Counted from the first letter of the stretch, positions 6,117 through 36,093 are shown. The stretch is 36,845 nt of DNA from an uncultured Eubacteriales bacterium (GCA_964640835.1 CAZXJE010000001.1:1-36845), one strand, 5' to 3'. Program-made: numbers and translations. The notes: generated by a model from the letters alone, not told the origin.

Positions 6117-6124
6117 GTACTATT

Positions 6125-11605: not shown

Positions 11606-11638
11606 GATAACAGGATTCTTATAGCATTATTGCAGGAA

Positions 11639-15228: not shown

Positions 15229-15475
15229 CTTTTCAGGCTAATGAATCTCTTCCCTCTTCATCCCCACACGCGCCTCCCTTTCTCTATTCTGTTTGGGGAC
15301 CTCTACTCTCTCCTAGCACGCCTTCGTTTTTTCCCTTTGTCTGCAGCTAGCTGGCCAATGCTATGGGATTCGAAATCGACGCCAGAGGAGAACCAATTCT
15401 GGCTGTATGATTGAGATTGTCGAACTTGCCGACGCCTTGTTTGCACAAAAGAGAAGGATCTTCACCTTTGTCAAG

Positions 15476-15504
15476 TTGAAACCCGCTGGTGCATTGATTA
15501 CAAT
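15476..15504 (+). promoter_or_regulatory. Sigma70-type promoter candidate, PD40 gene copy 1
   Basis: TTGAAA (15476-15481), 17-nt spacer, TACAAT (15499-15504). GAGGA lies 5 nt before ATG 15521. Confidence 0.5.
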
Positions 15505-15520
15505 AGCTACGAGGATCGAG

Positions 15521-16486
15521 ATGATAAAGAGACTATTATTCGTATTGATTTGTTTGTATTCTGTTTTACTTGTGTTTTGCCAATCACAGAATAACAATCC
15601 GCCTCCAGAGCAGAATATAGCAGGATTTCAGGACTATGTTCCCGAGGTGGAATTCAGAGGAAAAATTATCTTCCAATCGGATATGGATGGAGACCATGAG
15701 ATTTACCTCTTGACTAAGAAAGGTTTGAAAAAGCTGACGGATAATGAATGGAATGATGAAAACCCGAAATGGTCGCCAGATGGGGAAAAGATAGGATTCA
15801 CGGCCAATCCAGGGGGGAAGTACGAAATTTTTGTGATGAATGCAGACGGCACAGATCTGACTCAACTCACAACACATGTGCGGAATCCCATCGGCCATAC
15901 AGGGCATAACTGGCATCCGGATGGGAAGAGGATTGCTTATTCGATCGAACGCAGGCGGGGGATCCGGAAGAGCCACAGAATGGAAATGGTGGATATCCAC
16001 TCGAAGATCATTGAGGAATTTGCTCCTGAGTTAAAGGGGAAAACCGCGATTCCTGATTTTTCGCCGATCGAGCCATTGGTAGGCGTTACGTCCAAGGGTA
16101 CAATTGGCTGGGAAGTCGCTGTCTATCATCTCCAGACTAAAGAGCTCTCCTTTCTTACAGAGGGAGGAAAAAGCTGTCGCCCGCATTTTTCCTGGGATGG
16201 GAAAAAGATCGCATTTGTCTCAGCAGAAGCAGACGGGAAAGGAGATATCTGGTTAATGAATCCGGATGGAAGCGAAAAAACCAGATTGACCCATAGGGAT
16301 GAGTACCATGATTATTTTCCCGCTTGGTCGCCTGATGACATGTTCGTCGTATTCAGCTCAACGCTCAGCTATAAGAAAAAATTGAAAGGGGACTGGGCCC
16401 TTTTTCTAACCAAGGTAGATGACAAAAAAACCACTCTTTTGCTGGACACTCCTGGAGGGGATCTGTTTCCGGATTGGCACAAGTAA
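15521..16486 (+). CDS. Periplasmic PD40/TolB-like beta-propeller repeat protein with signal peptide (copy 1)
   Basis: The ORF track gives 15407..16486. That extension overlaps the promoter, so I prefer ATG 15521. N-terminus: MIKRLLFVLICLYSVLLVFCQSQ (signal peptide with a lipobox-like LVFC). PD40-type repeats: NPKWSPDGEKIGFTANPGGKYEIFVMNADGTDLTQLT, HFSWDGKKIAFVS..GDIWLMNPDGSEKTRLT, PAWSPDD. Confidence 0.85.
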   Translation: MIKRLLFVLICLYSVLLVFCQSQNNNPPPEQNIAGFQDYVPEVEFRGKIIFQSDMDGDHEIYLLTKKGLKKLTDNEWNDENPKWSPDGEKIGFTANPGGKYEIFVMNADGTDLTQLTTHVRNPIGHTGHNWHPDGKRIAYSIERRRGIRKSHRMEMVDIHSKIIEEFAPELKGKTAIPDFSPIEPLVGVTSKGTIGWEVAVYHLQTKELSFLTEGGKSCRPHFSWDGKKIAFVSAEADGKGDIWLMNPDGSEKTRLTHRDEYHDYFPAWSPDDMFVVFSSTLSYKKKLKGDWALFLTKVDDKKTTLLLDTPGGDLFPDWHK

Positions 16487-16613
16487 TTTTTTCTCTTGAA
16501 AGCCTTCATTAGAACGGGCAGGATTTGGTTAGTGTAACACAGAGGAGACATCACTCGGGCTGGTCTGGCTGACACCACTGGTAATTCTGCCTGGGATTAA
16601 GTTCCTTGTCCAG

Positions 16614-16642
16614 TTGAAAGCCGCTGGGGCATTATTTAAAAT
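16614..16642 (+). promoter_or_regulatory. Sigma70-type promoter candidate, PD40 gene copy 2 (duplicated with the gene)
   Basis: TTGAAA (16614-16619), 17-nt spacer, TAAAAT (16637-16642). It is positionally homologous to the copy 1 promoter. Confidence 0.5.
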
Positions 16643-16658
16643 AGCAACAAGGATGAAG

Positions 16659-17624
16659 ATGAAAAGAAAATTTTTATTCATATTGATTTGTTTGTATTCT
16701 GTTTTGCTTGTGTTTTGCCAATCGCAGAAAGACAGTCCGCCAATGGAGCAGGATCTGGCCGGACTTCAGGACTATGTGCCTGAGATAGAATTTATGGGAG
16801 AAATTGTCTTCCAATCGGATATGGATGGCGACCGTGAAATCTACCTCTTGAATAAGAACGAATTGAAGAAGCTGACGGACAACAAATGGAACGACGAGAA
16901 TCCGAAATGGTCTCCGGATGGGAAAAAGATTGGATTCACGGCCAATCCGGGGGGAAAGTACGAAATTTTTATGATGAATGCAGACGGCACAGATCTGATC
17001 CAACTCACAACACATGTGCGTAATCCTATCGGCCACTCAGGTATTATTTGGCATCCGGACGGGAAGAGAATTGTTTACACGATCGAACGTAGGCCCGGAG
17101 TCTTCAAGAGATGCAGGATGGAAATGGTGGATGTCCAGTCAAAGGTTATTGAGGAGTTTGTTCCGGAATTGAACGGCAGAGCCGCGATTACTGATTTTTC
17201 TCCGGTCGAGCCCTTGGTGGGCATCACCGCCAAGCGCACAATCGGCTGGGAGGTAGCTGTCTATCATCTCCAGACTGAGGAGCTTTCCTTTTTAACTTCC
17301 AGTGGAGGGATTAGTTGCCGCCCGCATTTTTCCCATGATGGAAAAAAAATCGCCTTTATCTCGGGAGTTGGGGGCGGGAAAGGAGATATATGGCTCATGA
17401 ATCCCGGCGGAAGCGAAAAGACCAAGATGACCCAGAGGGATGAAACCCTTGACTATTTTCCCTGCTGGTCTCCTGATGATAAGTTTATCATGTTCAGTTC
17501 AACACTCAAACACAAGAAATTGAAAGGAGACTGGGCTCTTTACCTGCTGGAAGTGAAAACCGGGACTATCACTCTTTTTTTGGATACTCCTGGGGGGGAT
17601 CTGTTTCCGGATTGGTACAGATAA
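16659..17624 (+). CDS. Periplasmic PD40/TolB-like beta-propeller repeat protein with signal peptide (copy 2)
   Basis: The ORF track gives 16614..17624 (TTG start). ATG 16659 aligns with the copy 1 start and has AAGGA upstream. The N-terminus MKRKFLFILICLYSVLLVFCQSQ and the PD40 repeats are as in copy 1. Confidence 0.85.
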   Translation: MKRKFLFILICLYSVLLVFCQSQKDSPPMEQDLAGLQDYVPEIEFMGEIVFQSDMDGDREIYLLNKNELKKLTDNKWNDENPKWSPDGKKIGFTANPGGKYEIFMMNADGTDLIQLTTHVRNPIGHSGIIWHPDGKRIVYTIERRPGVFKRCRMEMVDVQSKVIEEFVPELNGRAAITDFSPVEPLVGITAKRTIGWEVAVYHLQTEELSFLTSSGGISCRPHFSHDGKKIAFISGVGGGKGDIWLMNPGGSEKTKMTQRDETLDYFPCWSPDDKFIMFSSTLKHKKLKGDWALYLLEVKTGTITLFLDTPGGDLFPDWYR

Positions 17625-17683
17625 AATTTAGATCTAGTTGAAGCGGCATGTTTTTAATAGTCGAATACCCATCCGAGGTATTG

Positions 17684-17712
17684 TTGACAATAAATCAGTA
17701 TTTATTTATAGT
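17684..17712 (+). promoter_or_regulatory. Near-consensus sigma70 promoter predicted to give a leaderless mRNA
   Basis: TTGACA (17684-17689), 17-nt spacer, TATAGT (17707-17712). ATG 17719 begins 7 nt after the -10. No Shine-Dalgarno sequence is possible. Confidence 0.55.
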
Positions 17713-17718
17713 TTAATA

Positions 17719-19050
17719 ATGAACCAAAAAACAACTCTTCCCATTGTGTTAGTCATCCTAATTTCTGTTATTGTAGCGGGCTACTTTTTTGTTTTAAAAA
17801 AAGAAGAAACTTCCTTGGACTCCCCTCATGTTGTCATTATCGGTATAGACGGAGCGGGATGGAATCTGATTGATCCGCTCTTAGAGGAGGGATTTCTTCC
17901 CAATATCAAGCATTTGAAAGATAAGGGAGGCTCCGGCACACTGGAGACGGTCAGGCCTGTGAAATCATCTGTCATCTGGACCTCTATTGCTACGGGAAAG
18001 TCGATGGTGAAGCATGGAGTCGTCGATTGGACCTACATCAATAATAACAATATTGAAGTTCCCTATCGGCAGAGCGAGAGAAGGGTTAAAGCTGTTTGGA
18101 ACATTATCGGAGAGTTGGGATGGAAAGTGGGCGTAATTAACTGGTTTATCACTTTTCCTCCTGAAGAGGTTAATGGGTACATGATATCCGAAGAATTCAG
18201 GCATTTTGGCCGTAGGGATTTTTCGAAGGTCTCTGTGACCTACCCAAGGAACCTTTTAGGGAAACTCGAATTTGCCCGATTTAATCGGAAGGAATTCCAA
18301 ACCGTAATCGAAGAGGAGAATTTGCCTAACTTCAAAGACCGCCATTCTGGATACGGAGGCGAATCCAAGCTTGTCCAAAATTATGACAATTTTGTCCTCC
18401 AAGATAAGACCATTGATTTGACCAGTCTGTATCTTTACCAGAGGTTCCCTGTGGATTTGTTTCTGTCATATTTCCGTCTGATTGATGTAGTCAGTCATTT
18501 CGCATGTGCGTATATTGCACCTGAGCTGCTGGCTAAGGGCGTTGAGGAAGAAAAGAAAGGAAAGGTGACACCCGCTACCCTGGCACAAATCCACCGGGAT
18601 TTCAGTCGTGTTATGGAGCCGGTCTATTCCTACTCTGATAGAGTATTGGGGAAATTTCTTGAACGGTTAGGGCCTCAAAGCACAGTGATAGTCGTTTCTG
18701 ACCATGGTTTTGGGTATAACAAGGGGGGCTATGGGCATACAAATTTGCCAGAGATTCCTCATGGAATAATCTTGATTAAAGGTCCTCAAATAAAGAAAGG
18801 ACATCAGATTCAAGACGCTCATATTTATGATATCATGCCCACAGTTCTTTATCTGTTTGACCTGCCAGTTGCAGAAGACATGGATGGAAAAGTGTTGACC
18901 GAAGTCTTCGACAAGAAATTTTTAAAGGAAAGACCGATCCGATTTATAAAAAGTTATGAAGACAAAACCATTAAGATCAGAGGAAAAAAAGACGAGGCTC
19001 TGGATAAGAAAACGTTGGAAGAGCTTCGTGCATTAGGTTATATTAAATAA
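17719..19050 (+). CDS. Membrane-anchored alkaline-phosphatase-superfamily enzyme, type I phosphodiesterase/nucleotide pyrophosphatase-like
   Basis: The ORF track gives 17638..19050 (TTG start). I prefer ATG 17719, giving MNQKTTLPIVLVILISVIVAGYFF as an N-terminal anchor. Motifs: VVIIGIDGAGWN, SSVIWTSIATGKSMVKHGV (Thr/Ser nucleophile region), VVSDHGF. Confidence 0.85.
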   Translation: MNQKTTLPIVLVILISVIVAGYFFVLKKEETSLDSPHVVIIGIDGAGWNLIDPLLEEGFLPNIKHLKDKGGSGTLETVRPVKSSVIWTSIATGKSMVKHGVVDWTYINNNNIEVPYRQSERRVKAVWNIIGELGWKVGVINWFITFPPEEVNGYMISEEFRHFGRRDFSKVSVTYPRNLLGKLEFARFNRKEFQTVIEEENLPNFKDRHSGYGGESKLVQNYDNFVLQDKTIDLTSLYLYQRFPVDLFLSYFRLIDVVSHFACAYIAPELLAKGVEEEKKGKVTPATLAQIHRDFSRVMEPVYSYSDRVLGKFLERLGPQSTVIVVSDHGFGYNKGGYGHTNLPEIPHGIILIKGPQIKKGHQIQDAHIYDIMPTVLYLFDLPVAEDMDGKVLTEVFDKKFLKERPIRFIKSYEDKTIKIRGKKDEALDKKTLEELRALGYIK

Positions 19051-19204: not shown

Positions 19205-21925
19205 TTATCGGATGTAACCGAGAGCTCTCATCGTTTCTTCAAAATCTTTATCCCTGGATTTTCTTTTTTGTTTTGACTTCGCTTGATAAACCTCAGGAAT
19301 TTTGCTTATCAAATCTCTGATGATTGCACCTTTCTGGTCAAAAAGATTATGCATCTCGGTTGGATCCTTTTTCATGTCATAGAGTTCGAACTTTGCAATA
19401 GGCGGTGGGACGGGGAGATAAAATTCGGGAGGACTGCCGAAATCATTGTTCATTATCAGTTTGTAGCCGTTCTGGAAAAGAGCGATTTTTACAGGCAAAA
19501 TATCGGGATTATTAGAGTCCACATCTGCGATAAGCATTTGCTCCTCTTTTTTGCCATTTCTAAGATAATTGACTAAGCTTACACCGTCAAAATCATACCC
19601 AGAAAGATCGACATCTATTTCATCTAGTATTGTGGGCATGATATCAACTATGCTGACAGTATTGTTAAGTCGTGTATTCTTATATTTGGATTGGGGAAAT
19701 TTGATGATCAGTGGAATGCGAAGGAGTTCGTTGTAAAGAGAGTGACCATGAAGCCAGGCCTTATGATCGAAGAATTCTTCCCCGTGGTCGGAGGTCAAGA
19801 TAATCATTGTGTTTTCATAGAGTTGGAGTTTTTTTAATTTCTCGATAAGAGGTTTGATCAAAATTTCGTCGGTGAACCTTATCTCTCCGTCGTAAAGTGC
19901 CACAATGTTTTCTCTCTCTAAAGGAGATAATGTATTGAAGGGGACTTTACTTTGAGGGCTTGATCCGAGGAGGATCTCCTCTATATCTCCCTCTGTCCAG
20001 GGCATTTTTTGATCGCTGAAAAAGAAAGAGTTGAAAGGAGACGGACAGATATAGGGTGCATGCGTTTGATAGGTGTGGAGGAAGAGAAAAAATCTTTTAT
20101 CTTTGTTTGCATTAAGCCATTGGTTGACATGATGATAGAGAATTTTTGCTGAATTTGGTTTGTGGCGGGATCGCATGAATTCTCTGTAGAAATCGAAACC
20201 CTTGGAGAATCCGAACCTCTGACCAACCAGCGCTCCTCCTGTCATTGCACACGTGAAGTATTCTTCTTTTCTTAACATATCAGCAAGAGTAACGATAGAG
20301 CTATCAAGATAGGGATTTGTTTTGTCAACTCCATGATGTCTGTTATCGAGAGATGTCAACATGGAAATGTGGGCGGGAAGTGTCCACGAGGTGCTGCTGA
20401 AAGCATTTGTGAATATGGCACCCTCTGCTCCCAACTGATCCATATGAGGGCTTGTCTCCCTACTATAACCATAACATTTCAGATGATCAGCTCTTAATGT
20501 GTCCAGAGAAATCAGTATGATGTTAGGTTGTATGCGCTCCTGGGAATTTGATAAAAATTTGCGATAGATGATGGGATTCTCCCAATAGGCAAACTCCATG
20601 TCGTCTGGGACAGAGGCCTTTGTTGGTTGGTGGTTGTGAGAGCCGGATGCAGAGATGGTGATAAATTTAATGATCACATTTTTGTTGACATAGCGAGAAA
20701 GATCAATTTTCTCCTTGAAAGCTTCATTGAAAAACTTTTTTTTGTACGGAGCCAAATTTTCCGAGAAGAGGGTTTCTTCATTTTGCCCTTCTTGGATCAC
20801 GACGCTGAAACTGACTTCTGCTTCTGGATCTTTCCAAAACGGGCTGAATATTCCATATCCAAATTCCAATACACATGCCTGGGGAAGTTTCAATTCGTAC
20901 TCGAACTGCGAATGCGGGGGGGCAAGGAGAACGTTTATGGCATCATCCAGGATTCGATGTGATAGATTTTTTGCAAAACCCATGACAACAAGTTTTTTTT
21001 TAAGATTGAATGGATTATCCTTTATGGACATGTCATGAAGTGGTGACATATGACTCATTCTTGCAAGGAAAGAGGAAGATTTGTCTTCAGGCTCAGCAAT
21101 ATATTCTGCTGAATAATCGACTGTTAGAAAAGATTTTTTATCTTGTGGTACGGAAATGAGGATGATATCCTTCAAAGACTTGACTGAAATTCTATCAATA
21201 AGGACTCCATTTTCAAGCTTGCCGGTGGTTCTTTCTCCGTTTTCGATGAAAAGAGAAATTTTATTCATTCCGAACTGAGCTTGTCCGGTCATTTTGTAAC
21301 AATCGTAAGACCCGATGGATATCGTGCCTATGGGTTGGTTGTTTAACTCAACTCTGAGTTTAGGTTGTATCAATGATTGACTTTTTCCTTCCGCCCAGAT
21401 TTGTAGTATGAAGTCCCCTTCTGGCAAAAGGATCTGTTTCTCAAGCAATTTCCTCTCGTCCAAAACAAAAATATCTCGATTTTCATTGATTTCCTTGAAA
21501 TCATCAAATTCATGCTCTCCTTTGAGGAAAGTCCAACTGGAAACATCAGATTCTACAGCGTTTTCGAAAGGAATTTCCTTTCCCTCAGAATCGATCTTTA
21601 TGACAGCTGGGGCTTGTTTTGTCTCCCACGCCATCACCGGCGATTGGGTGCATATCGCATAATATTTTCTCTTGTTTAAAAGAAGTTGTTCGAATTCGGT
21701 GCCCGACCATTGCTGCTTGATTCTGATCAGCCTTTTTGTCAAGTCCATAAAAGGTGAAGCAACGATGTTTTTCTCTTCTAAGCGATCGATGAATCGGTAG
21801 AGAGTAAACGTCTCCTCTTTATGACTGGAGCAAGCCGAAAGCTGGATAATGAGAGCAATGATTATGGAAATTTTTAGTGTTTTGACTTGTATGATGTGTT
21901 TCGTCCCCATTGCCCTCCTCAACAT
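19205..21925 (-). CDS. Lipoprotein with an uncharacterised ~450-aa N-terminal domain fused to a sulfatase-fold (alkaline phosphatase superfamily) hydrolase/transferase domain
   Basis: 906-aa ORF. Lipobox: LIIQLSAC. Sulfatase-fold motifs: IILISLDTLRADHL, TSDHGEEF. The nucleophile region reads SSTSWTLPAHISMLTS, i.e. T-x-P-x-H instead of the formylglycine motif C/S-x-P-x-R. An alternative start at ATG 21910 lies 3 nt after AGGAGG. Confidence 0.85.
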   Translation of the reverse strand: MLRRAMGTKHIIQVKTLKISIIIALIIQLSACSSHKEETFTLYRFIDRLEEKNIVASPFMDLTKRLIRIKQQWSGTEFEQLLLNKRKYYAICTQSPVMAWETKQAPAVIKIDSEGKEIPFENAVESDVSSWTFLKGEHEFDDFKEINENRDIFVLDERKLLEKQILLPEGDFILQIWAEGKSQSLIQPKLRVELNNQPIGTISIGSYDCYKMTGQAQFGMNKISLFIENGERTTGKLENGVLIDRISVKSLKDIILISVPQDKKSFLTVDYSAEYIAEPEDKSSSFLARMSHMSPLHDMSIKDNPFNLKKKLVVMGFAKNLSHRILDDAINVLLAPPHSQFEYELKLPQACVLEFGYGIFSPFWKDPEAEVSFSVVIQEGQNEETLFSENLAPYKKKFFNEAFKEKIDLSRYVNKNVIIKFITISASGSHNHQPTKASVPDDMEFAYWENPIIYRKFLSNSQERIQPNIILISLDTLRADHLKCYGYSRETSPHMDQLGAEGAIFTNAFSSTSWTLPAHISMLTSLDNRHHGVDKTNPYLDSSIVTLADMLRKEEYFTCAMTGGALVGQRFGFSKGFDFYREFMRSRHKPNSAKILYHHVNQWLNANKDKRFFLFLHTYQTHAPYICPSPFNSFFFSDQKMPWTEGDIEEILLGSSPQSKVPFNTLSPLERENIVALYDGEIRFTDEILIKPLIEKLKKLQLYENTMIILTSDHGEEFFDHKAWLHGHSLYNELLRIPLIIKFPQSKYKNTRLNNTVSIVDIMPTILDEIDVDLSGYDFDGVSLVNYLRNGKKEEQMLIADVDSNNPDILPVKIALFQNGYKLIMNNDFGSPPEFYLPVPPPIAKFELYDMKKDPTEMHNLFDQKGAIIRDLISKIPEVYQAKSKQKRKSRDKDFEETMRALGYIR

Positions 21926-24133: not shown

Positions 24134-24235
24134 TGCATTATCCTCTGGGCATAATTTGATTCTTATTTATGCCACAAATCCCGTATAAAAACAACATTCC
24201 CTCTTCTATCTAAACGATTCTTCTTTTTTGATGCT

Positions 24236-26122
24236 TTATTCCATGTAGTGATCATACCAAAACTGGAAAATAATCAGTGGCCACAACAATTGCCGGTGAT
24301 TGTGTTCACCGTGGAAGTGTTCCTTCAGGAGCTTTTCGATGTAAGCATGATTGAAAAATCCGTGATGATTCAAGTTCGCTGGAGAGAGGATATCCGTGAC
24401 GAAATCCTTCAATTCATTCCTGATCCAGACACCTAAAGGAATGTCGAAGCCAATCTTTTTCCGGGTCAAAATTTCTGGAGGAAGGATTGGGGCCATCGCT
24501 TTTTTCAGAATATGTTTGGTCTCAAGTCTTTTCAGTTTAAGAGAACTTGGGATGGATGCGGCGTATTCAACGAATGTGTGGTCCAGGAATGGCACACGAA
24601 TCTCAAGAGAATTGGCCATGCTCATCCTATCTGATTTCACCAAAAGGTCATCCTGAAGATAGAGTTTCATATCCAAATATCCCAACCTGCTGACGGTGTC
24701 ATCAGCAGAGCAATTGTTGAGATGAAATGTGATGGGTGCGAATAGGTCTTCCTTGGTTTTTTCATAGATGTCTGGAGAGAACAATTCTTTCCCCTCTGAC
24801 GGACTGTAGGCTCCCCACCAGATAAAATTGGATATCTCTGGGGGATAGTCGATCCCTGATATGAATTTTTTCGCTTTGAATTCAAAACTCAACCTTTTCC
24901 CGGAAGCGGGAAGAAGCGGAGCGATTTTTTTGATGATGCTGTTTCTTATGAACTTCGGCACTTTTCTGTAGAATTTTGCCACTTGGTAGGCCTTGTAGGT
25001 GTCATAGCCTGCGAAGAGTTCGTCTCCTCCCTCGCCCGCCAGGGCAACTGTAACGTATTTACGGGCTAAGTTAGAAATGATGTAGGTCGGGATTATCGAA
25101 GCGTCGGCCAGCGGTTCATCCAGATATTCGATTAGCCTAGGGACCAATTCTTTGACCAGATTCGACTCCACAACAAATTCCGTATGATCTGTCTGAAAAT
25201 GGTCGGCAACAATTTTGGCATACCTCAGTTCGTTAAAACTCTCTTCCTTGAAACCTATAGAGAAGGTCTTTATCTTGGAGACGGCCACTTCGCTCATCAA
25301 TGCTGTTATGGAACTGGAGTCTATTCCACCGCTGAGAAAAACTCCCAAAGGAACATCACTAATCAGGCGCCTTTTTACGGATTCTTTCAGCTTCAGATAA
25401 ATGTTCTCCTGGTAGGATTCTTCTCCATCGTGGTTTTCTGAGGCATTTGAGTGCGCCACGTCCCAATAGGAATTCACTTTGATTTTCTCGTTAGAGATCA
25501 CAATCATGTGGCCTGGGAGCAATTTCTTGATGCCTTTGAAGATTGTCTCCGGTGCGGGGATATACTCGAATGTGAAAAATTGTGACATGCTTTCGAAATC
25601 GAGCTCTCGCTGGTAATCAGCCTGAAGAATGGATTTTATTTCGGATGAAAAAACAAGATTATCTTCCGTCTGCCAATAATGGAGGGGCTTGATTCCCAGT
25701 CTGTCTCTGACGAGATAGAATGTGTTCGATTTTTTATCCCAGAGTGCAATAGCAAACATGCCATTTAATCGGGATACAAAATTTTCCCCTTCCTCCTCAT
25801 AAAGATGGACAATAACCTCTGTATCTGATTTGGTGAAAAAGGTATGTCCTTTTGCAATGAGCTGTTCCCGCAATTCAGGGAAATTGTAAATTTCGCCGTT
25901 GAGGATTACCCAAACGCTTTTGTCCTCGTTGGGAATAGGTTGATGCCCTGTGACCAGGTCGATGATGCTCAACCGGCGCATCCCCAGGGACACTTTTTTG
26001 TCGGAATAGTAGCCTTCATCATCCGGGCCACGGTGAGCCATCACAGAGCACATCTTTTTTGTAATGTTTTCTGCTTCTGGTCCCAGCCCGCTGAATCCGT
26101 AGATGCCGCAGATGCCACACAT
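24236..26122 (-). CDS. asnB: Asparagine synthase (glutamine-hydrolysing) family amidotransferase
   Basis: 628-aa ORF. MCGICGIYGF provides the Ntn Cys2 nucleophile. PP-loop: VFLSGGIDSSS. GAGG lies 6 nt upstream of the ATG. In a glycan locus it may act as a sugar or uronate amidotransferase rather than in housekeeping asparagine synthesis. Confidence 0.92.
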   Translation of the reverse strand: MCGICGIYGFSGLGPEAENITKKMCSVMAHRGPDDEGYYSDKKVSLGMRRLSIIDLVTGHQPIPNEDKSVWVILNGEIYNFPELREQLIAKGHTFFTKSDTEVIVHLYEEEGENFVSRLNGMFAIALWDKKSNTFYLVRDRLGIKPLHYWQTEDNLVFSSEIKSILQADYQRELDFESMSQFFTFEYIPAPETIFKGIKKLLPGHMIVISNEKIKVNSYWDVAHSNASENHDGEESYQENIYLKLKESVKRRLISDVPLGVFLSGGIDSSSITALMSEVAVSKIKTFSIGFKEESFNELRYAKIVADHFQTDHTEFVVESNLVKELVPRLIEYLDEPLADASIIPTYIISNLARKYVTVALAGEGGDELFAGYDTYKAYQVAKFYRKVPKFIRNSIIKKIAPLLPASGKRLSFEFKAKKFISGIDYPPEISNFIWWGAYSPSEGKELFSPDIYEKTKEDLFAPITFHLNNCSADDTVSRLGYLDMKLYLQDDLLVKSDRMSMANSLEIRVPFLDHTFVEYAASIPSSLKLKRLETKHILKKAMAPILPPEILTRKKIGFDIPLGVWIRNELKDFVTDILSPANLNHHGFFNHAYIEKLLKEHFHGEHNHRQLLWPLIIFQFWYDHYME

Positions 26123-26382
26123 GGTTTACCTCTGGTGTCCCTAATGTATCTAAACAGCGATAGAATATCAATCCCTGCTTTGTATCCAAGTAAACATTCA
26201 ACTCTAAACGGTTAACGGTTAGAACAAGGCCAACATCTTTAAGGCCTAAGAATTGATGAATGCAGCGGAAAAATAATTAGAGTGAAGTCTGTGCATTGTT
26301 TATCATTCAGTTTTACGAATGAGAACAATTATCAGTTCAAGGAGTTAGGAAAACAAAGTTGTGTATCAGGTATCGAGAGGTG

Positions 26383-26391
26383 TGTTATAAT
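26383..26391 (+). promoter_or_regulatory. Extended -10 promoter element candidate for the rSAM-YdjC-GT2-GT-C operon
   Basis: TGtTATAAT at 26383-26391. The -35 is weak. It lies inside the track's 26359-start extension, which supports the downstream GTG 26437 start. Confidence 0.3.
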
Positions 26392-26436
26392 TTTAGCCAA
26401 ATTTCTGTTTGGATTGGAGTATTGAACAAGGACAAT

Positions 26437-27804
26437 GTGATTTTATTGAATCCACCGGGTGATAAGCTATACATCCGTGATTATTACTGTAGCTTTTCAT
26501 CCAAGGCGGATTATTACTGGCCCCCACAGGACCTCATTTACCTCAGTGGGATTCTCGATCAGGAGTTTTCCGTTCAAGTCATCGACGCCATTATCAACAG
26601 AATGTCGGAGGAAGATGTTCTTTCGTGTGTTGAGGATTCCGGAGCGCGAGCTCTAATTTTTACAACAGGGACGGCCACGTTTCAGTCTGATCTTCGTTTG
26701 ATTCAAAAGGTCAAAGCAAAGACCGGAATTAAAATCATAGCCAGTGCTGGAATTTTAAAATTCATCGGTCATGAATTCCTGAATCGGTACGATTATGTTG
26801 ATGCACTGCTTCTGGATTTCACCGAACAAGACATTCTCACTTATATAAGAAACGATGGAGAGGCGCCGCTAAAAGAGATTATATACAGAAAGAACGGTAA
26901 TTTCATCGAAAGCAAAGCGAAAGCACCGCTCAAGTTCAGCGTTCCTGTCCCCAGACATGATCTTTTTGATTTTTACAAATACCGGATTCCTCATGCCCGG
27001 AGGCTTCCCTTTACAATCGTTGTCACGTCATTGGGATGCCCACACAGCTGTGGATTCTGTACGGCTGGCGCTTATGGTTATAGGACGAGAGATGTGGACG
27101 GAGTCATCGAAGAGCTTCGACTTCTTTCACGTTTGGGAGTGAAAGAGATTCTGTTCCAAGATCCCACATTCACGATCAACGCGAAAAGAGTTGTCGAGCT
27201 TTGCAGCAAAATGGTGAAAAACAATTTTGATTTCACATGGAGTTGTAACGCAGATATCAAATCGTTCACAGAGGAAAAAATCAAACATATGAAGCAGGCT
27301 GGGTGTCATACGGTGTTCTTGGGTATAGAAAGCGGCAGTGACGAAATTCTCGAGAAATACTCGAAGAAGATCACTACAGATGAGATCAGAAAGACCATCC
27401 GGATGCTGAACACATACAAGATCCGTGTTTTAGGCTATTTCATCCTCGGATTACCGGGTGAGGACAGGGATTCCATCCGTAAAACCATAGACCTTGCCAA
27501 ACAACTGGACATTGACTTCGCATCCTTTTCTACTGCCACCCCGGATTTGGGGACTCCCTTAAGGAGAGAAGCCCTGGAAAAAGGGTGGATGTGTGCCGAA
27601 GAGAGTGTGTTTGACAGTTCAGATTTTCCTGTTCTCGAGACGGAGACTCTTTCAAGAGAAGAAGTCTGGCAACTTCGTCGCCAGGCTGTCTTGGAATTTT
27701 ACCTCAGGCCTTCCTACTTGTTTAAAATGATGCGTCAGATTCGGAATTTTCGGGATGTGAAATTAGCTGCATCAAACGCTCTATCGCTTTTTCGAAAATC
27801 ATGA
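26437..27804 (+). CDS. Cobalamin (B12)-binding-domain radical SAM enzyme (class B type; HpnJ-like architecture)
   Basis: The ORF track gives 26359..27804 (TTG start). GTG 26437 has AAGGA 4 nt upstream. It gives (M)ILLNPPGDKLY, parallel to the MNIILLNPPYF start of the paralog at 3918..5279. Cluster motif: TSLGCPHSCGFCTA. The stop overlaps the next start (ATGA at 27801-27804). Confidence 0.87.
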   Translation: MILLNPPGDKLYIRDYYCSFSSKADYYWPPQDLIYLSGILDQEFSVQVIDAIINRMSEEDVLSCVEDSGARALIFTTGTATFQSDLRLIQKVKAKTGIKIIASAGILKFIGHEFLNRYDYVDALLLDFTEQDILTYIRNDGEAPLKEIIYRKNGNFIESKAKAPLKFSVPVPRHDLFDFYKYRIPHARRLPFTIVVTSLGCPHSCGFCTAGAYGYRTRDVDGVIEELRLLSRLGVKEILFQDPTFTINAKRVVELCSKMVKNNFDFTWSCNADIKSFTEEKIKHMKQAGCHTVFLGIESGSDEILEKYSKKITTDEIRKTIRMLNTYKIRVLGYFILGLPGEDRDSIRKTIDLAKQLDIDFASFSTATPDLGTPLRREALEKGWMCAEESVFDSSDFPVLETETLSREEVWQLRRQAVLEFYLRPSYLFKMMRQIRNFRDVKLAASNALSLFRKS

Positions 27805-28649
27805 AGAAAGTCATAATTAATGCCGATGATTTCGGTCTGGTCCAGGGGGTGAACGAGGGGATTATCAAGGCCCATCAAGAGGGTATCCTGACGAGCGCAA
27901 CCCTGATGGCCAACATGCCTGGGTTTAAGGAGGCTGTGGTGTTGGCCGGCGCCAATCCCAAGTTAGGCGTAGGAGTGCATCTCAATATACTCCGGGGTCA
28001 GCCCGTCTCACCCACAAAGAAAGTGGAGAGCCTTCTTTCGAAGGAGCTTCGATTTATTCCGAGCGTTTCGAGTCTTCTCCGACGAATTGTCTGGAAACGG
28101 ATCAACTTCGATGAGGTCGAAAGAGAGTTCAGAGCCCAAGTAGAGAAGGTGTTGGAAGTTGGCCTTGAACCCAGTCACATCGACAGCGAAAAGCACATTC
28201 ACTTGATCCGGCCTCTCTTCCGGATTGTCCTGAAGCTGGCGAAAGAGTACAAGATTGATAAGATTCGATTTATTCAGGAATACTGTGTCTCTCCCCGGTC
28301 GACACAGATATTCAAATCGATTTTCATTTCCCTATCCTCGACTTCTATGAAAAAGAGGATGGTCAAAGAGGGGATCCGCTCCCCCGACAACTTCTATGGC
28401 GTGTGTGACAGTGGCCTGATCACCGAGACAAAACTCCGGAAAGCGCTTCGAGGTGCCAAAGAGGGTGTCACAGAAATTATGGTTCATCCTGGATTTATCA
28501 CACAGGAAATGATAGAGTTAGAAAAACAGATCGGCCCTTATTACATCAATAAATACAGAGAGAAAGAGTTAAACGCACTGCTCGATGAAAAATTGCCTGA
28601 AGTCATCGCTGATCTGGGGATTCAGTTGATAAATTTTAATCACTTATAA
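27801..28649 (+). CDS. YdjC/ChbG/HpnK-family carbohydrate de-N-acetylase
   Basis: 282-aa ORF. Hallmark N-terminus: MKKVIINADDFGLVQGVNEGIIKAHQEGILTSATLMANMPGF, followed by LGVGVHLNIL. Confidence 0.9.
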   Translation: MKKVIINADDFGLVQGVNEGIIKAHQEGILTSATLMANMPGFKEAVVLAGANPKLGVGVHLNILRGQPVSPTKKVESLLSKELRFIPSVSSLLRRIVWKRINFDEVEREFRAQVEKVLEVGLEPSHIDSEKHIHLIRPLFRIVLKLAKEYKIDKIRFIQEYCVSPRSTQIFKSIFISLSSTSMKKRMVKEGIRSPDNFYGVCDSGLITETKLRKALRGAKEGVTEIMVHPGFITQEMIELEKQIGPYYINKYREKELNALLDEKLPEVIADLGIQLINFNHL

Positions 28650-28664
28650 ACGGTAAAAGATCCC

Positions 28665-29657
28665 ATGGATGAAAAAGATAAGAACCTGCAGATTTCAATC
28701 GTAGTCCCCTTTTATAATGAAGAGGACAACATCGAAGAGCTTTATGGACAATTGACCCGGGTGCTTAAAGGGCTGGGTGTGTCTTACGAGTTGATCTTTA
28801 TCGATGACGGCAGCACGGATAGAACCCACGACATATTGATGAGTCTCTTCGATTCTGACGAAACAGTCATGGTCATCATACTGCGCAAAAATTTCGGACA
28901 GACTGCTGCTCTGCAGGCTGGGTTTGACCATGCCAAAGGTGAGGTCGTCATCACCATGGATGGGGACCTGCAGCATGACCCCAAGGATATCCCCAAGTTG
29001 TTAGCTCCATTGGAAGAGGGCTTTGATATTGTCTCGGGATGGCGCAAAGAACGGAAAGATCATTTTCTTCTGAGGCGATTTCCCTCCTGGGTGGCCAACA
29101 GGATTATGAGGCTCCTCTCGAGAGTTAATATCCATGATTTTGGGACGACTTTTAAGGCCTACAGACGGGATGTCCTCGAGGGGCTTCGGCTATACGGGGA
29201 GCTTCACCGTTTTATCCCCGCTCTCATCAGCCGGACAGGAGTGAGGATCACTGAAGTCCCGATCACGAATGTGGTCCGTCAGAAGGGAAAATCGAATTAC
29301 GGACTTTCGCGCATCCGCCGAGTTCTCTTTGACCTGATGACCGTGAAGTTTATCATCAGTTTTATCGACCGGCCATTGCAGTTCTTTGGCCTTATCGGCC
29401 TAATCCTCGGCGGCGCCGGATTCACCATTGGCCTCATTCTGACTGTTGGGTTTTACTTTTTTGAATGGTCGATCAGAGAGAACCTGGGAAATTTAATTCT
29501 CAGTGTGTTCTTGATGATCATGGGACTTCAGTTCATTATGACCGGCTTACTGGCAGAAATCATATCTCGTATCTATTTCACTACACACGGAATGCGAATT
29601 TATTCCGTGGCAGAAATGAAATCCCATCAGTCCTCGAATAAGGAAGCGGGAAGATAA
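28665..29657 (+). CDS. Family 2 glycosyltransferase, ArnC/GtrB/DPM1-type polyprenyl-phosphate glycosyltransferase with two C-terminal TM helices
   Basis: 330-aa ORF. Motifs: ISIVVPFYNEEDNI, IFIDDGSTDRT, FGQTAALQAGFDHAKGEVVITMDGDLQHDP, IVSGWRKERKD. C-terminal TM helices: FFGLIGLILGGAGFTIGLILTVGFYFF and LILSVFLMIMGLQFIMTGLLAEII. Confidence 0.9.
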   Translation: MDEKDKNLQISIVVPFYNEEDNIEELYGQLTRVLKGLGVSYELIFIDDGSTDRTHDILMSLFDSDETVMVIILRKNFGQTAALQAGFDHAKGEVVITMDGDLQHDPKDIPKLLAPLEEGFDIVSGWRKERKDHFLLRRFPSWVANRIMRLLSRVNIHDFGTTFKAYRRDVLEGLRLYGELHRFIPALISRTGVRITEVPITNVVRQKGKSNYGLSRIRRVLFDLMTVKFIISFIDRPLQFFGLIGLILGGAGFTIGLILTVGFYFFEWSIRENLGNLILSVFLMIMGLQFIMTGLLAEIISRIYFTTHGMRIYSVAEMKSHQSSNKEAGR

Positions 29658-29681
29658 GACTGGGCCCAAGGTGAAGGAGGG

Positions 29682-31796
29682 TTGTTGAACAATATTTTAA
29701 TTAAAAAGGTTCAACAGAACGCCGATCTTTTGACATGGCTTGGGATTGCTCTTTTTTCAGTCTTTTTATTCCTAACTCTTGTTCAATCTCTGGATGTGCT
29801 TTCTCTCTGGATGGATGAGGGATTTTATTATCTAGCAACACAAAAAATTATTGAATTCGGCTGCCCCCTTTATCCCTCAGGTCACATCTATTTTAAAGCG
29901 ATTTTTTATGCATATGCGTCCGCTCTTTTCTCCATTATTTTTGGATTTTCAGTTTTTAATCTCAGGTTGATCAGTGTTTTTTCGACCATCGCTCTTTTTC
30001 CCGTTATTTATCTTCTCGGGAAGAGATTCTTTAACAGGTTGATTGGTTTGGGAGCTGTTGTCGTCTTTTCTTTAAATGTATGGGTTGCAGAGTACTCTCG
30101 GACAGACATTTATTTCGCTTCTCTCCAATTGGTGAGTTTCCTCGGCCTTTATCTTTTCTACAGAGGTTTTTTCGAAGAGAAAAAGAGATATAAGGTTTTA
30201 GCCACGGTTTCCTTCTTGATAGCGCCACTGGTGCACCAGCTGGGCATGGGCCTTTGGTTCTGTTTTCCTGCCTTTTTCTTTGTAAAAGGAGTGAAAAGAT
30301 TCTTTCGCAGGGATATATTACTGAGTTTTGCTCTGACAACCGTTTTTTATCTTTTTGTCCAGATTCATGAGTTTTTCTTTTGGAAAGTCGGATATGTGTA
30401 CTTTAAAAGCGATCTTAGCTTCCGTGGATTGATCCAGTATTCTTTCTCCAGTTTCTCTCTCAGCTATTTTTATGAGTTCTACCGAAGTTTTCCCTTAATG
30501 AGTCTGATTGTTTTTGCTGGGTTGTTCTCCCTCTTGGGGGCATGGTTCCTTGAGGGGAAGAAGGAACAGTCTGGTTCGCGTACATTTTATGTAAATTGGC
30601 TTTTTTTAAATTTGTGCTTGATCTTTCCACTCCTATTCCTTGGATTTTTCCGGACCCATGTCCAACCGAGGTATCTCTATCAGCTCTATCCTCTTTTTGT
30701 CGTTCTGTATGCCGTAAGCCTCTTTAAATTTTCCCAAATTCTTATCGAGACTCTAATAACGCCCTTTTCAACCAAGAGGACGAAAGCTCACTCGGCTGCT
30801 GCAGGAATTCTTTTTGTGATTCTGGCCTTTTTCAGTGCTGAAGGAGTTGGATTGGGCGAGGTTAAAAAGATTGTGAACAGGCAGTACGGTGATCCTATCC
30901 AAACAAATATTATCAATCGGTCGGGTAGGCAAGAGCATTACGATCATAGAGGGCCGGGCGAGTACGTCCGACACTTTCTCCAGGAAGATGATCTGGTCGT
31001 GGCCATCCATGTGGTCTTTCAGTACATCTATGCAGGACGCGTTGATTATTGGCTGTGGTCCGGGGGACCCGGGACTTGGGATGCATGGGAGGAAACATCT
31101 GAGGGGTGGAAGGATTTTTATACCGGTGCCAGGTGGATCAACAGCCTGGAAGGTCTGAAACAAGTGTTGGATGGGAATCCCAAAAAGAGGGCCTGGATCA
31201 TCGTATCTCCCTCCATCTTTCGCAGGGACCATATCAAGGAGAACATCGCTCAGTTCATAAAATCAGACCCAGAAAAACTTGTCTTCCGAGGTAAAGACGG
31301 CATGTCAGAAGTCTATCTGTGGAATGAAGAGGCAAAAGAACTGACCGGCCCCGCTCACACCATAGAGGGAGAATGGCTTCCTGCGTTCTTCGGAAAGACT
31401 GTATACGAAGAAGAAGCTTCCAGAGGGAGTGCCTTCTATGTTCCCAAATTGGAGAATGGAGGAAAAATCGGCTATTACACGACAGAACAGACATTCTCGC
31501 CCGGGCGTTATTCGGTTTCTTTGCGGTTAAAGTCGCAAGATTTCGAACGAGAGGACGATAGATTGTTCGGTATCGCTCTCTTGAATGGGCCAAAGGGCGA
31601 TCAAGTGGCGTCCTATATCGTGAAGGGAGATATGATTAAAAATGGAGCAGGTTACCAGGACTATCACTTTAACTATTATCAGAGCAAAGAGAGCCGGCTG
31701 TATCTGAAATTTTTATTCACGGGTCAAGGAAATGTATGGCTCGATTATGTGGATATTGAACCTGACATCGAGCCGCCTACAGATAAAATGTCTTAG
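29682..31796 (+). CDS. GT-C membrane glycosyltransferase (ArnT/PMT_2-like) with a C-terminal extracytoplasmic beta-rich (CBM-like) domain
   Basis: 704-aa ORF. TTG start(s) at 29682/29685 lie immediately after AAGGAGG. First-loop motif: LSLWMDEGFYYLATQKIIEFGCPLYPSG. About 11 TM segments. The C-terminal ~300 aa are soluble and end ...LYLKFLFTGQGNVWLDYVDIEP. Confidence 0.82.
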   Translation: MLNNILIKKVQQNADLLTWLGIALFSVFLFLTLVQSLDVLSLWMDEGFYYLATQKIIEFGCPLYPSGHIYFKAIFYAYASALFSIIFGFSVFNLRLISVFSTIALFPVIYLLGKRFFNRLIGLGAVVVFSLNVWVAEYSRTDIYFASLQLVSFLGLYLFYRGFFEEKKRYKVLATVSFLIAPLVHQLGMGLWFCFPAFFFVKGVKRFFRRDILLSFALTTVFYLFVQIHEFFFWKVGYVYFKSDLSFRGLIQYSFSSFSLSYFYEFYRSFPLMSLIVFAGLFSLLGAWFLEGKKEQSGSRTFYVNWLFLNLCLIFPLLFLGFFRTHVQPRYLYQLYPLFVVLYAVSLFKFSQILIETLITPFSTKRTKAHSAAAGILFVILAFFSAEGVGLGEVKKIVNRQYGDPIQTNIINRSGRQEHYDHRGPGEYVRHFLQEDDLVVAIHVVFQYIYAGRVDYWLWSGGPGTWDAWEETSEGWKDFYTGARWINSLEGLKQVLDGNPKKRAWIIVSPSIFRRDHIKENIAQFIKSDPEKLVFRGKDGMSEVYLWNEEAKELTGPAHTIEGEWLPAFFGKTVYEEEASRGSAFYVPKLENGGKIGYYTTEQTFSPGRYSVSLRLKSQDFEREDDRLFGIALLNGPKGDQVASYIVKGDMIKNGAGYQDYHFNYYQSKESRLYLKFLFTGQGNVWLDYVDIEPDIEPPTDKMS

Positions 31797-31864
31797 GGCC
31801 TGAAAAGGCAGAGAATGATTCTCCAAGAAGATGCTGAACAGAAAAGGGACAAAAGGAGGGTGGG

Positions 31865-32617
31865 ATGAAAGACGATTTTCGGGGGAGTGTACAGAAGGAG
31901 CTCATCGAAAAAAAAGGATCTTTTTTTTCGAAGTATTCCATTCTTTTTCTAGGGAAGAAAGGATTTTTTTTATTTCTCAAGTATGAGTGTTTGACCTTGC
32001 TCTTTTCAGGGATTCCTGGAGCGCTGGGTTTTTTCTTGCGCAAGCTCTTCTACCCGAGCTTATTCAAGAAGGTAGGAAAAGGCGTGATCTTTGGACGGAA
32101 CATCACTGTGCGGCATCCGAAAAAGATCTCGATCGGGGACAACACCTTCATCGATGAAAATGTGGTACTGGATGCTAAAGGAGAGGAAAACAAAGGGATT
32201 GCAATAGGTGCAAATGTCTACATCGGCCGGAACACCATTCTGAGTTGTAAGGAGGGATCTATCTTTCTAGAGGATTACTGCAACATATCTGCCAATTGTA
32301 TGCTCCTCTCAGAGACTGAGATCCGTTTGGGTTTGTACTGTTTTTTGGCAGGGCAATGCTATCTTGTGGCCGGTGGGAATCATGCATTCGATGACATATC
32401 GGTTCCGATCATGTTCCAGCCCTCCTATTCCAAAGGAGGGATCGCAGTCGGTGAGGATGTGTGGCTGGGAGCGGGAGTTATCGTTCTGGATGGAGCGAAT
32501 GTCGGGAAAGGAACCGTTGTAGGGGCAGGAGCAGTGGTCACCGAATCTCTTCCAGAGTACTGTATTGCAGTTGGGAGTCCCGCTCAAAAGATCAGAGACA
32601 GAAAGACCACCGTCTGA
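31865..32617 (+). CDS. Left-handed beta-helix (hexapeptide repeat) acyl/acetyltransferase, WcaF/sugar O-acetyltransferase-like
   Basis: 250-aa ORF with AGGAGG upstream. Hexapeptide-type repeats: ISIGDNTFIDENVVLD, IAIGANVYIGRNTIL, IAVGEDVWLGAGVIVLDGANVGKGTVVGAGAVV. The N-terminal stretch is hydrophobic. Confidence 0.85.
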   Translation: MKDDFRGSVQKELIEKKGSFFSKYSILFLGKKGFFLFLKYECLTLLFSGIPGALGFFLRKLFYPSLFKKVGKGVIFGRNITVRHPKKISIGDNTFIDENVVLDAKGEENKGIAIGANVYIGRNTILSCKEGSIFLEDYCNISANCMLLSETEIRLGLYCFLAGQCYLVAGGNHAFDDISVPIMFQPSYSKGGIAVGEDVWLGAGVIVLDGANVGKGTVVGAGAVVTESLPEYCIAVGSPAQKIRDRKTTV

Positions 32618-35112: not shown

Positions 35113-36093
35113 TTAAAGCCAGTTATAGGCCTTGCACCACTCAACGGTTTGCGAAGTCCCCTCCGCAAAGCTGATTTTAGGAGCGTATCCCAGTTCTTTC
35201 TTGGCCTTTTGGATGGCAAGCGGTTTGGGATGAATGAAAAAGCTCAGCTTGCCCCGGGTTAAAGGGGCCTCTCTTTTTAGTAGGGCAAAGGATCTTTCTA
35301 GGGCTGATGCTGCCAGTTTTACTGGCCATAAGGGAAGTGAGATTGGCGGTATCTTAGTTCCCGTCGCCGATGCGATGGCAGTGACGATGTCTTTTACTGG
35401 CAGGACTTCATTCCCCGCAAGGTGGTAGATATGACCTCTTTGTCCCTTCTCTGCACACAGAAACACGCCGTTCACCAAGTCGTCGATGTGGACCGGGGTC
35501 TGCAATGTTTCACCCTTGGTGACAAGGATGAATCTTTTTTTGGCGATGGCTTTGAGGAGTTTGAATGTTCGCCGATCGCCCGGCCCATAGACCCATCCCG
35601 GCCTTACGATGACGATATCCATTCCCTCTTCGGCAAAGCGACGGGCGATATTTTCTCCTTCAAGTTTGCTGCGGTCATAACTGTTTTGGGGATTTAAAGG
35701 ATAGTCTTCGTTGGCCACCTCACCCTTTTCAACCAAACCTAAAACACCCGCAGAGCTGAAGTGAACGATTTTTGGGACACCGGCATTTTTTGCAGCTTGG
35801 AGGACATTTTTTGTCCCCTGGCCGTTAATACGAAAAAAATCACTTGCAGTCAAAATCGAGGCACCCAAGGCTGCTGCGCAATGGAAAAGAATATCTTTGC
35901 CTTCAAAGAGTCCTTCCAATGAACCGGGATTTGTGATATCCCCCTCAACAACGTCATACTTTTGTTCGGATGTGGTTTCTCCTGCCGGGCGGCGGTTGTG
36001 CTGGAGGACACAGACATCCCACTGCCTTTGAAAACATTCCTGCATCAACGCACGGCCGATGAATCCGGATGCTCCTGTGATAAACACTTTCAT
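35113..36093 (-). CDS. NAD(P)-dependent sugar epimerase/dehydratase (extended SDR)
   Basis: 326-aa ORF. MKVFITGASGFIGRAL is the GxxGxxG Rossmann motif. The catalytic YxxxK is present (SYDRSK). IVRPGWVYGPGD is also present. Confidence 0.9.
   Translation of the reverse strand: MKVFITGASGFIGRALMQECFQRQWDVCVLQHNRRPAGETTSEQKYDVVEGDITNPGSLEGLFEGKDILFHCAAALGASILTASDFFRINGQGTKNVLQAAKNAGVPKIVHFSSAGVLGLVEKGEVANEDYPLNPQNSYDRSKLEGENIARRFAEEGMDIVIVRPGWVYGPGDRRTFKLLKAIAKKRFILVTKGETLQTPVHIDDLVNGVFLCAEKGQRGHIYHLAGNEVLPVKDIVTAIASATGTKIPPISLPLWPVKLAASALERSFALLKREAPLTRGKLSFFIHPKPLAIQKAKKELGYAPKISFAEGTSQTVEWCKAYNWL

Follow-up and report, generated by a model that had tools for sequence, protein, structure and literature searches.

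A putative polyprenyl-phosphate aminosugar delivery operon with an optional radical SAM enzyme in an uncultured bacterium

We analyzed a 36,845-nucleotide stretch of DNA from an uncultured Eubacteriales bacterium (GCA_964640835.1, CAZXJE010000001.1:1-36845), hereafter called the window, and focused on an operon of five genes on its plus strand. These genes encode a radical S-adenosylmethionine (SAM) enzyme, which we call rSAM_A, a YdjC-family carbohydrate de-N-acetylase, an ArnC/GtrB-type family 2 glycosyltransferase (GT2), a 704-aa polytopic protein of predicted GT-C fold (GTC704), and a hexapeptide acetyltransferase. Overall, we consider it somewhat probable that the operon delivers an aminosugar from the cytoplasm to the periplasm in the manner of the FlmF2-NaxD-FlmK, LgmABC and Arn systems, with optional editing of the sugar by the radical SAM enzyme. 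Judged from homology and gene context, what appears to be new is the addition of a radical SAM step and an acetyltransferase to a NaxD/Lgm-type pathway. Homologs of the window proteins carry the names Candidatus Aminicenantes or Acidobacteriota in the source records, which places the window in this uncultured lineage.

The genes of the operon follow one another closely. The stop of rSAM_A (26437..27804) overlaps the start of the YdjC gene (27801..28649) in an ATGA at 27801-27804, and gaps of 15, 24 and 68 nt follow the YdjC, GT2 (28665..29657) and GT-C (29682..31796) genes, respectively, the last gap leading to the acetyltransferase gene (31865..32617). The open reading frame (ORF) of rSAM_A opens at 26359. 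Its GTG start at 26437 would give a protein of 455 aa and an in-frame TTG at 26422 one of 460 aa; the TTG fits better because homologs measure 457-462 aa. AAGGAGG stands upstream of the TTG start of the GT-C gene, and AAAGGAGGG upstream of the ATG start of the acetyltransferase gene. An initial annotation had described five same-strand genes with this overlap, these gaps and GGAGG-type sites ahead of the last two genes, and we reproduced all of these features, with AAGGAGG-type sites at both positions. The motifs that it listed are also present in the translations, namely VILLNPPG and GCPHSCGFC in rSAM_A, INADDFGL and TSATLMAN in the YdjC protein, FYNEE, DDGSTD, MDGDLQHDP and SGWRKERKD in the GT2, and LWMDEGFYYLA in the GT-C. 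Its interpretation of the operon was only partly borne out: the GT2, YdjC and GT-C assignments and the gene order held, whereas the B12 label, the proposed radical chemistries, the re-acylation step and the radical SAM enzyme as a fixed component did not hold as worded.

The YdjC protein matches the Pfam YdjC model over its full length (223.6 bits), which makes this assignment firm. Its best NCBIfam model is HpnK (TIGR03473; 188.6 bits), and ChbG scores 175.7 bits; neither reaches its cut-off (232.6 and 227, respectively). Matches in the PDB are 2I5I, 7VI8 and 8JQE. These comparisons support a place in the NaxD/HpnK/ChbG family, of which NaxD de-N-acetylates undecaprenyl-P-GalNAc (PMC11279074). 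The GT2 scores 125 bits against Pfam Glycos_transf_2. Among NCBIfam models, ArnC is the best (199 bits, short of the equivalog cut-off of 529) and PgfS scores 172 bits, and the HpnI model is absent from the 22 matches at E<=0.01. The protein aligns with the ArnC structures 9HWJ, 9BHC and 8VXH at about 191 bits over residues 9-318 and with GtrB (5EKP) at 137 bits. The ArnC alignment includes two C-terminal transmembrane helices, which correspond to hydrophobic segments at residues ~230-300. By architecture, the GT2 is thus predicted to be a polyprenyl-phosphate glycosyltransferase that synthesizes a polyprenyl-phosphate-sugar, but not an ArnC ortholog, and the ArnC/GtrB type first given to it is retained. 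Taken together, profile hidden Markov model (HMM) comparison places the GT2 nearest to ArnC and the YdjC protein nearest to HpnK and ChbG, with all equivalog cut-offs missed.

The GT-C was resolved only through structure prediction because searches against PDB chains, both with the single sequence and with a profile, returned no match. The Pfam PMT_2 score, 22.4 bits, lies below the cut-off of 26.1. For the AlphaFold2 (AF2) model, which has a predicted local distance difference test (pLDDT) value of 86.7, the top Foldseek match was ArnT (5F15; E 2.1e-9, TMt 0.59). Emb, AglB/STT3, ALG9, Pmt4 and PglB came after it, so that the top matches were all GT-C enzymes. The protein has nine or more hydrophobic segments, and D45 and E46 of the first-loop motif LWMDEGF are invariant across 34 homologs. 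A polytopic domain, an acidic first-loop motif and the modeled fold place the protein in the GT-C superfamily with an ArnT-like membrane domain, in agreement with the ArnT/PMT type proposed at the outset. Its periplasmic C-terminal beta-sandwich matches CBM6/CBM4 in Foldseek (E ~2e-4, TMt ~0.62), and this domain, resembling a carbohydrate-binding module (CBM), is suggestive of a glycan acceptor. The last gene encodes a left-handed beta-helix protein that scores 43.7 bits against Pfam Hexapep, 90.8 bits against a WcaF-family subfamily model of NCBIfam (cut-off 192) and 74 bits against WbbJ. By sequence, it appears to be a WcaF/WbbJ-like acetyltransferase of the O-acetyl type. In relatives, the gene always comes after the GT-C gene, whether or not the radical SAM gene is present. 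The initial view of a hexapeptide acyltransferase is upheld, but the idea that the enzyme re-acylates the free amine is unsupported, since WcaF-like enzymes are of the O-acetyl type.

rSAM_A combines an N-terminal Rossmann-fold domain, which resembles a B12-binding domain, with a radical SAM core (Pfam Radical_SAM, 96 bits) in which the CxxxCxxC cysteines C201, C205 and C208 are invariant in the homolog alignment. The N-terminal domain scores 27.2 bits (E 3.7e-6) against Pfam B12-binding, below the cut-off of 32.1. An Rfam scan of the window and the upstream intergenic region matched no family, cobalamin riboswitch included. HpnJ (TIGR03471) is the top NCBIfam model at 192.7 bits, but its cut-off is 577.6, and identification of rSAM_A as HpnJ was rejected on this score. 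AprD4 (NF033070) scores 144.5 bits against a cut-off of 500, and BchE scores 114.9 bits. These three models cover the entire length of the protein and place it in an HpnJ/AprD4/BchE-like group, whereas the methyltransferase models (PhpK, HpnR, TsrM-type and KedN5) cover only the radical SAM core. In a profile search of the PDB, the closest solved structure was AprD4 (6FD2; 172.8 bits). Foldseek with the AF2 model (pLDDT 95.4) also ranked AprD4 first, with a TM-score of 0.78 across the full length, and matched the B12 methylases MgmA, TsrM, TokK and CysS as well (0.64-0.69). With an AprD4 model score far from equivalog level, this is a resemblance of fold. The earlier B12 label rests on the sub-threshold Pfam match, and the nearest structure belongs to a diol dehydratase rather than to a methylase. 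Cobalamin is only a possible cofactor of rSAM_A, whose N-terminal Rossmann domain can be called B12-like.

The relatives of rSAM_A nevertheless point to a class of substrate. AprD4 was crystallized with paromamine (title of 6FD2); it acts on this glucosamine glycoside with AprD3 as its partner reductase (PMC5461906). HpnJ acts on a glucosamine glycoside after de-N-acetylation by HpnK (PMC13459092). Because the two nearest characterized families both act on a glucosamine glycoside, a carrier-linked hexosamine fits as the substrate of rSAM_A.

Conservation of the operon was assessed by scanning a profile of the radical SAM enzyme, built from a 12-sequence alignment, over one genome per species and mapping the window proteins onto 80 loci (numbered with the prefix L); a reciprocal synteny test begun from GT-C homologs added L086-L090. 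The five-gene order of the window recurs in L002, L006, L007, L008, L009, L088 and L089 with protein identities of 44-94%; the initial annotation had proposed to check synteny in related genomes. The ATGA overlap between the radical SAM and YdjC genes was read directly in L002 and L006-L009, and the coordinates of the two genes also overlap in L088, which is near-identical to L002, and in L089. Because the order and the overlap recur across Aminicenantes contigs, the arrangement is not a product of chance. The radical SAM gene, however, is not a fixed part of it, contrary to the initial description. In L086 and L087, the YdjC-GT2-GT-C-acetyltransferase core occurs between the same neighboring genes with no radical SAM gene within 8 kb; this makes the radical SAM enzyme an optional add-on.

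An AsnB-type glutamine amidotransferase gene (24236..26122, minus strand; Pfam Asn_synthase, 362 bits) adjoins the operon divergently in the window and in every Aminicenantes locus that bears the operon. In L016, the radical SAM gene lies across the divergent promoter, inside the AsnB operon. L010 and L090 have rearranged rSAM-YdjC-GT2-(methyltransferase)-AsnB operons, with asnB on the same strand and the GT-C gene divergent or absent, and asnB also stands within a GT2-AsnB-SDR-rSAM operon in Magnetovibrio (L034), where SDR denotes a short-chain dehydrogenase/reductase. AsnB is a conserved partner of the operon. Against the XrtA/PEP-CTERM amidotransferase model, the protein scores 617.6 bits (cut-off 816.9). 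The 314-nt region between asnB and rSAM_A (26123..26436) is the presumed location of the promoters; consensus promoter and terminator scans of it did not exceed shuffled expectation and were not used. In L090 (Candidatus Aminicenantia, GCA_046760445.1), a gene with DUF362 and 4Fe-4S ferredoxin domains (L090:6741-7880, minus strand) leads the rearranged operon and might encode an electron donor for the radical SAM enzyme.

Across the 80 loci, a GT2 gene is the commonest neighbor of this radical SAM family, with 45 loci having one on the same strand at a distance of no more than 3 kb; by the same measure, a YdjC gene is found in 10 and a hexapeptide transferase gene in 16. In Omnitrophota and Planctomycetota (L032, L039-L041), the radical SAM gene adjoins YdjC with a GT2 present, and in L039, the two ORFs overlap by 4 nt; such adjacency in distant phyla is seen at 31-39% identity. 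A neighbor-joining tree, computed without support values and to be taken as a rough guide only, places the YdjC-linked clade of Omnitrophota and Planctomycetota beside the Aminicenantes clade. In Minicystis rosea (L065), an rSAM-YdjC pair has a GT2 nearby. Geobacter (L036), Magnetovibrio (L034) and Falkowbacteria (L024) carry GT2-(AsnB)-SDR-rSAM with the SDR gene immediately 5′ of the radical SAM gene, the two overlapping in an ATGA in L034 and L024. The GT2-SDR-rSAM genes of Geobacter lie inside a surface-polysaccharide cluster (Bac_transf, a PglF-like dehydratase and Wzi), the Falkowbacteria copy adjoins a PMT_2 GT-C gene, and many Chloroflexota have the order acetyltransferase-GT2-rSAM. That the radical SAM gene has remained beside YdjC and GT2 despite several rearrangements, and also in distant phyla, argues that the enzyme belongs to the pathway. 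L039 (8578-17816), L040 and L041 show a further arrangement, GT2-SAM methyltransferase-rSAM-YdjC-two more B12-type radical SAM genes-887-aa membrane protein without a family match, in which three radical SAM enzymes stand in a row around a single YdjC.

Hexosamine modification of lipid A proceeds via undecaprenyl phosphate in the FlmF2-NaxD-FlmK system of Francisella and the LgmA-LgmC-LgmB system of Bordetella. The operon follows the same logic, with an ArnC-like GT2, YdjC-type de-N-acetylation on the carrier, and an ArnT-like GT-C outside the cytoplasm; at the family level, it contains an ArnC/GtrB-type GT2 with transmembrane helices, a YdjC gene 15 nt from the GT2 gene, and an ArnT-type GT-C. 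Two additions set it apart, a WcaF-like acetyltransferase and a radical SAM enzyme whose gene is translationally coupled to that of the deacetylase. Its GT-C differs too, in that it carries a CBM-like module within a large periplasmic domain and does not resemble ArnT at the sequence level. The Arn pathway, which places aminoarabinose on lipid A, supplies the best model and structure for the GT2 (ArnC) and the best structure for the GT-C (ArnT), and it also has de-acylation on the carrier before flipping, as we propose here. However, the ArnC score of the GT2 lies far under its cut-off, and the de-acylase is a YdjC protein instead of the CE4-type ArnD. The operon is also without ArnA, ArnB and an ArnE/F flippase. 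The ORFs of the window yielded no formyltransferase, no DegT aminotransferase and no CE4 deformylase. An Arn pathway proper, for which ArnA, ArnB and ArnD would be expected, was rejected.

For the radical step, the comparison with AprD4 is the closest in structure. Together with AprD3, AprD4 acts as a 1,2-diol dehydratase that removes the 3′-OH of the glucosamine ring of paromamine, and the SDR-rSAM order in Geobacter, Magnetovibrio and the bacterium of the candidate phyla radiation (CPR) recalls this dehydratase-reductase pairing. In contrast to AprD4, rSAM_A would act on a lipid-linked substrate and not on an aminoglycoside, and the operon itself holds no SDR gene. To our knowledge, the Arn, Lgm/NaxD, Gtr, PpgS and GacI pathways, in which polyprenyl-phosphate monosaccharides serve to decorate lipid A, cell-wall glycans and proteins, have only simple on-carrier steps, such as de-acylation. 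Full-text literature searches found no description of a system that joins a radical SAM enzyme, YdjC, a polyprenyl-phosphate GT2 and a GT-C, and nothing relevant on radical SAM or hopanoid biology in Aminicenantes.

We provide a putative mechanism in line with these comparisons. The ArnC-like GT2 would transfer an N-acetylhexosamine (HexNAc) from a nucleotide sugar onto polyprenyl phosphate at the cytoplasmic face of the membrane. The YdjC enzyme would then strip the N-acetyl group from the carrier-linked HexNAc, like NaxD on its carrier-linked GalNAc. rSAM_A, co-translated with the deacetylase, would take a hydrogen from the carrier-linked hexosamine, so that ring substituents are altered and the glycosyl phosphate is spared. 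The WcaF-like transferase would acetylate the sugar, and after flipping, the ArnT-like GT-C would pass it to an acceptor in the periplasm. Further tailoring of this product is probably the role of the neighboring AsnB-type amidotransferase. The substrate, the order of the steps, the radical chemistry and the acceptor are what we infer from the family assignments, the gene coupling and the conservation described above.

The leading candidate for the radical chemistry is an AprD4-like 1,2-diol dehydration, which would yield a keto-deoxy aminosugar; we put it forward tentatively, by analogy with the nearest structure. Epimerization or some other chemistry, taken as one group, is doubtful too but has a slightly better chance than dehydration. 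The initial annotation had favored C-methylation or ring contraction, and both have lost ground. Orthologous GT-Cs occur in operons with and without the radical SAM gene, which implies that the GT-C accepts both donors and favors an edit that preserves the ring. Contraction of the HpnJ type ranks lower because a carbocycle would no longer be a substrate for glycosyl transfer, and it is hard to square with a GT-C shared with relatives lacking the radical SAM gene; we regard it as rather unlikely. Methylation is less favored still and in our judgment improbable.

The other genes of the window provide further context. Past asnB lie GT9 and GT2 genes. About 100 nt separate asnB from the GT9 gene (24134-24235), and relatives hold a SAM methyltransferase of 214-224 aa at this position (L002:7232-7897) that is absent from the window. 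On the 3′ side of the operon, the opposite strand encodes an SDF symporter, a SAM methyltransferase, an HpnA-like SDR and a GT4. The NAD-dependent SDR (35113..36093, minus strand) scores 143.7 bits against Pfam Epimerase and 169.3 bits against NCBIfam HpnA (cut-off 367.65). It is kept downstream in L002 and L086-L089, whether the radical SAM gene is present or absent, and it is a possible reductase or epimerase partner of the operon. In L086-L089, a second full-length ArnC-like GT2, 46-50% identical to that of the operon, follows past the GT4 gene (for example, L088:15763-16821); the window probably ends before its counterpart.

A second set of related genes lies near the other end of the window. 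rSAM_B (3918-5279, minus strand) is a paralogous B12-type radical SAM enzyme that is 32% identical to rSAM_A and scores above the Pfam cut-off for B12-binding; among NCBIfam models, HpnJ ranks first for it (205.9 bits). Directly downstream is GT2_B (5282-5950, minus strand), which has no transmembrane segment and is DPM1/AglJ/PpgS-like. The set also comprises a divergent gene for an 809-aa PMT-type GT-C (6098-8527, plus strand) and a convergent gene for a 718-aa protein with about 10 transmembrane segments and no family match (1721-3877, plus strand). Next to the PMT-type gene, a 619-aa protein with a weak GH43-like match (8584-10443) recurs beside GT-C genes in Aminicenantes, and two copies of its homolog stand immediately behind the GT-C ortholog in L090 (L090:10159-14232). 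At 10628-12457, the rRNA dimethylase gene RsmA has as its neighbor a radical SAM/SPASM gene, whose 325-aa product matches no equivalog, and this pair is kept next to GT9-GT2 in L002, L008, L009, L016, L086 and L087. Further along, two tandem PD40 beta-propeller proteins and a type I phosphodiesterase (15407-19050) are encoded upstream of a 906-aa protein with a C-terminal sulfatase/phosphodiesterase domain (19205-21925), which may be an LtaS/EptA-like envelope transferase. This block partly recurs near the operon in relatives.

Several observations weigh against the aminosugar delivery pathway that we propose. No enzyme of the operon reaches any equivalog cut-off, and the sugar, acceptor and chemistry are therefore all matters of inference. 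HMM comparison ranks the ring-contracting HpnJ above AprD4 for rSAM_A. The SDR that an AprD4-like route needs lies outside the operon and persists regardless of the radical SAM gene, and no flippase gene is evident. In Aminicenantes, radical SAM orthologs of 55-63% identity occur at a different locus, where SAM methyltransferase genes are nearby and neither YdjC nor a GT2 gene lies within 10 kb, which suggests that the radical SAM enzyme does not strictly require an adjoining deacetylase. Moreover, pairs of a GT2 and a deacetylase can have membrane lipids themselves as substrates; GpgS/GpgD, for instance, use phosphatidylglycerol.

Three other explanations were considered, all of them improbable. 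In the first, the carrier-linked pathway would operate as proposed, with rSAM_A as a true cobalamin-dependent class B C-methyltransferase. The N-terminal Rossmann domain followed by the CxxxCxxC-bearing radical SAM core is indeed the class B architecture, PF02310 is precomputed in about half of the homologs, and the E-value of the B12-binding match and the Foldseek resemblance to B12 methylases fit such an enzyme. However, the B12-binding score is sub-threshold and no cobalamin riboswitch was matched in the window by Rfam. The methylase models stop at the radical SAM core, in contrast to the full-length HpnJ, AprD4 and BchE models, the best structural match is non-methylating, and ordinary SAM methyltransferases are already present in related loci.

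The second explanation, to which we give about the same low weight, places the radical SAM enzyme outside sugar chemistry, acting on the polyprenyl carrier, another lipid or a peptide and merely co-located with envelope genes. It would account for the cores of L086 and L087 that lack the enzyme and for the orthologs at a different locus, which are flanked by a GT-C paralog and an ortholog of the 809-aa PMT-type protein of the window. The size of the family, with 3753 representative clusters at E<1e-30 and varied contexts, is also consistent with it. It fares badly with the conserved stop/start overlap, the retention of the rSAM-YdjC-GT2 trio in at least three gene orders within Aminicenantes, the adjacency to YdjC at low identity in distant phyla, and the frequency of GT2 neighbors across phyla.

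The third, marginally weaker still, is a membrane-lipid head-group pathway of the HpnI-HpnK-HpnJ type, in which GlcNAc on a hopanoid or other lipid would be deacetylated and contracted to a cyclitol, with the GT-C serving a separate function. Hopanoid glucosamine and cyclitol ether formation uses the same trio of GT2, YdjC and a radical SAM enzyme with a B12-like domain; the best models are HpnJ for both radical SAM enzymes of the window, HpnK for the YdjC protein and HpnA for the nearby SDR; lipid-acting pairs of GT2 and deacetylase such as gpgSDF exist; and the trio lacks an adjoining GT-C gene in L010 and in Omnitrophota loci. Nevertheless, this reading is disfavored, as all of these scores fall under their equivalog cut-offs (HpnJ far under), the GT2 is of the ArnC type along its full length and without an HpnI match, a GT-C gene follows 24 nt behind it in conserved order, and, as initially noted, no squalene-hopene cyclase (SHC), HpnH or HpnG-like gene occurs among ORFs of at least 150 aa in the window. 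Clear orthology to hpnIJK was rejected within the window. A GTDB-wide survey found the HpnJ domain confined to genomes with SHC and HpnH (bioRxiv 10.1101/2025.07.29.667474), which also counts against a hopanoid-type pathway.

Returning to the delivery of a carrier-linked aminosugar, we speculate, with a little less than even confidence, that a large AprD4/HpnJ-like clade of radical SAM enzymes edits polyprenyl-phosphate-bound sugars at the cytoplasmic face of the membrane before GT-C enzymes export them onto envelope glycans. Such a clade could perhaps span Aminicenantes, Omnitrophota/Planctomycetota, CPR bacteria, Chloroflexota, Desulfobacterota and Myxococcota, an extent to which we attach the same guarded expectation. 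Two independent cases might then lie in the window, one formed by rSAM_A and YdjC-GT2-GT-C and the other by rSAM_B, GT2_B and the PMT-type GT-C, although we hold this, too, somewhat short of probable. Related clusters exist in cultured organisms, for example Minicystis rosea DSM 24000. If the proposal is true, envelope biosynthesis would gain a deoxy, branched or epimerized aminosugar that is made after commitment to the carrier, a function would be assigned to a huge set of unannotated 'B12-binding radical SAM' proteins, and the relation of HpnJ and AprD4 to a wider glucosamine-acting group would be revealed.

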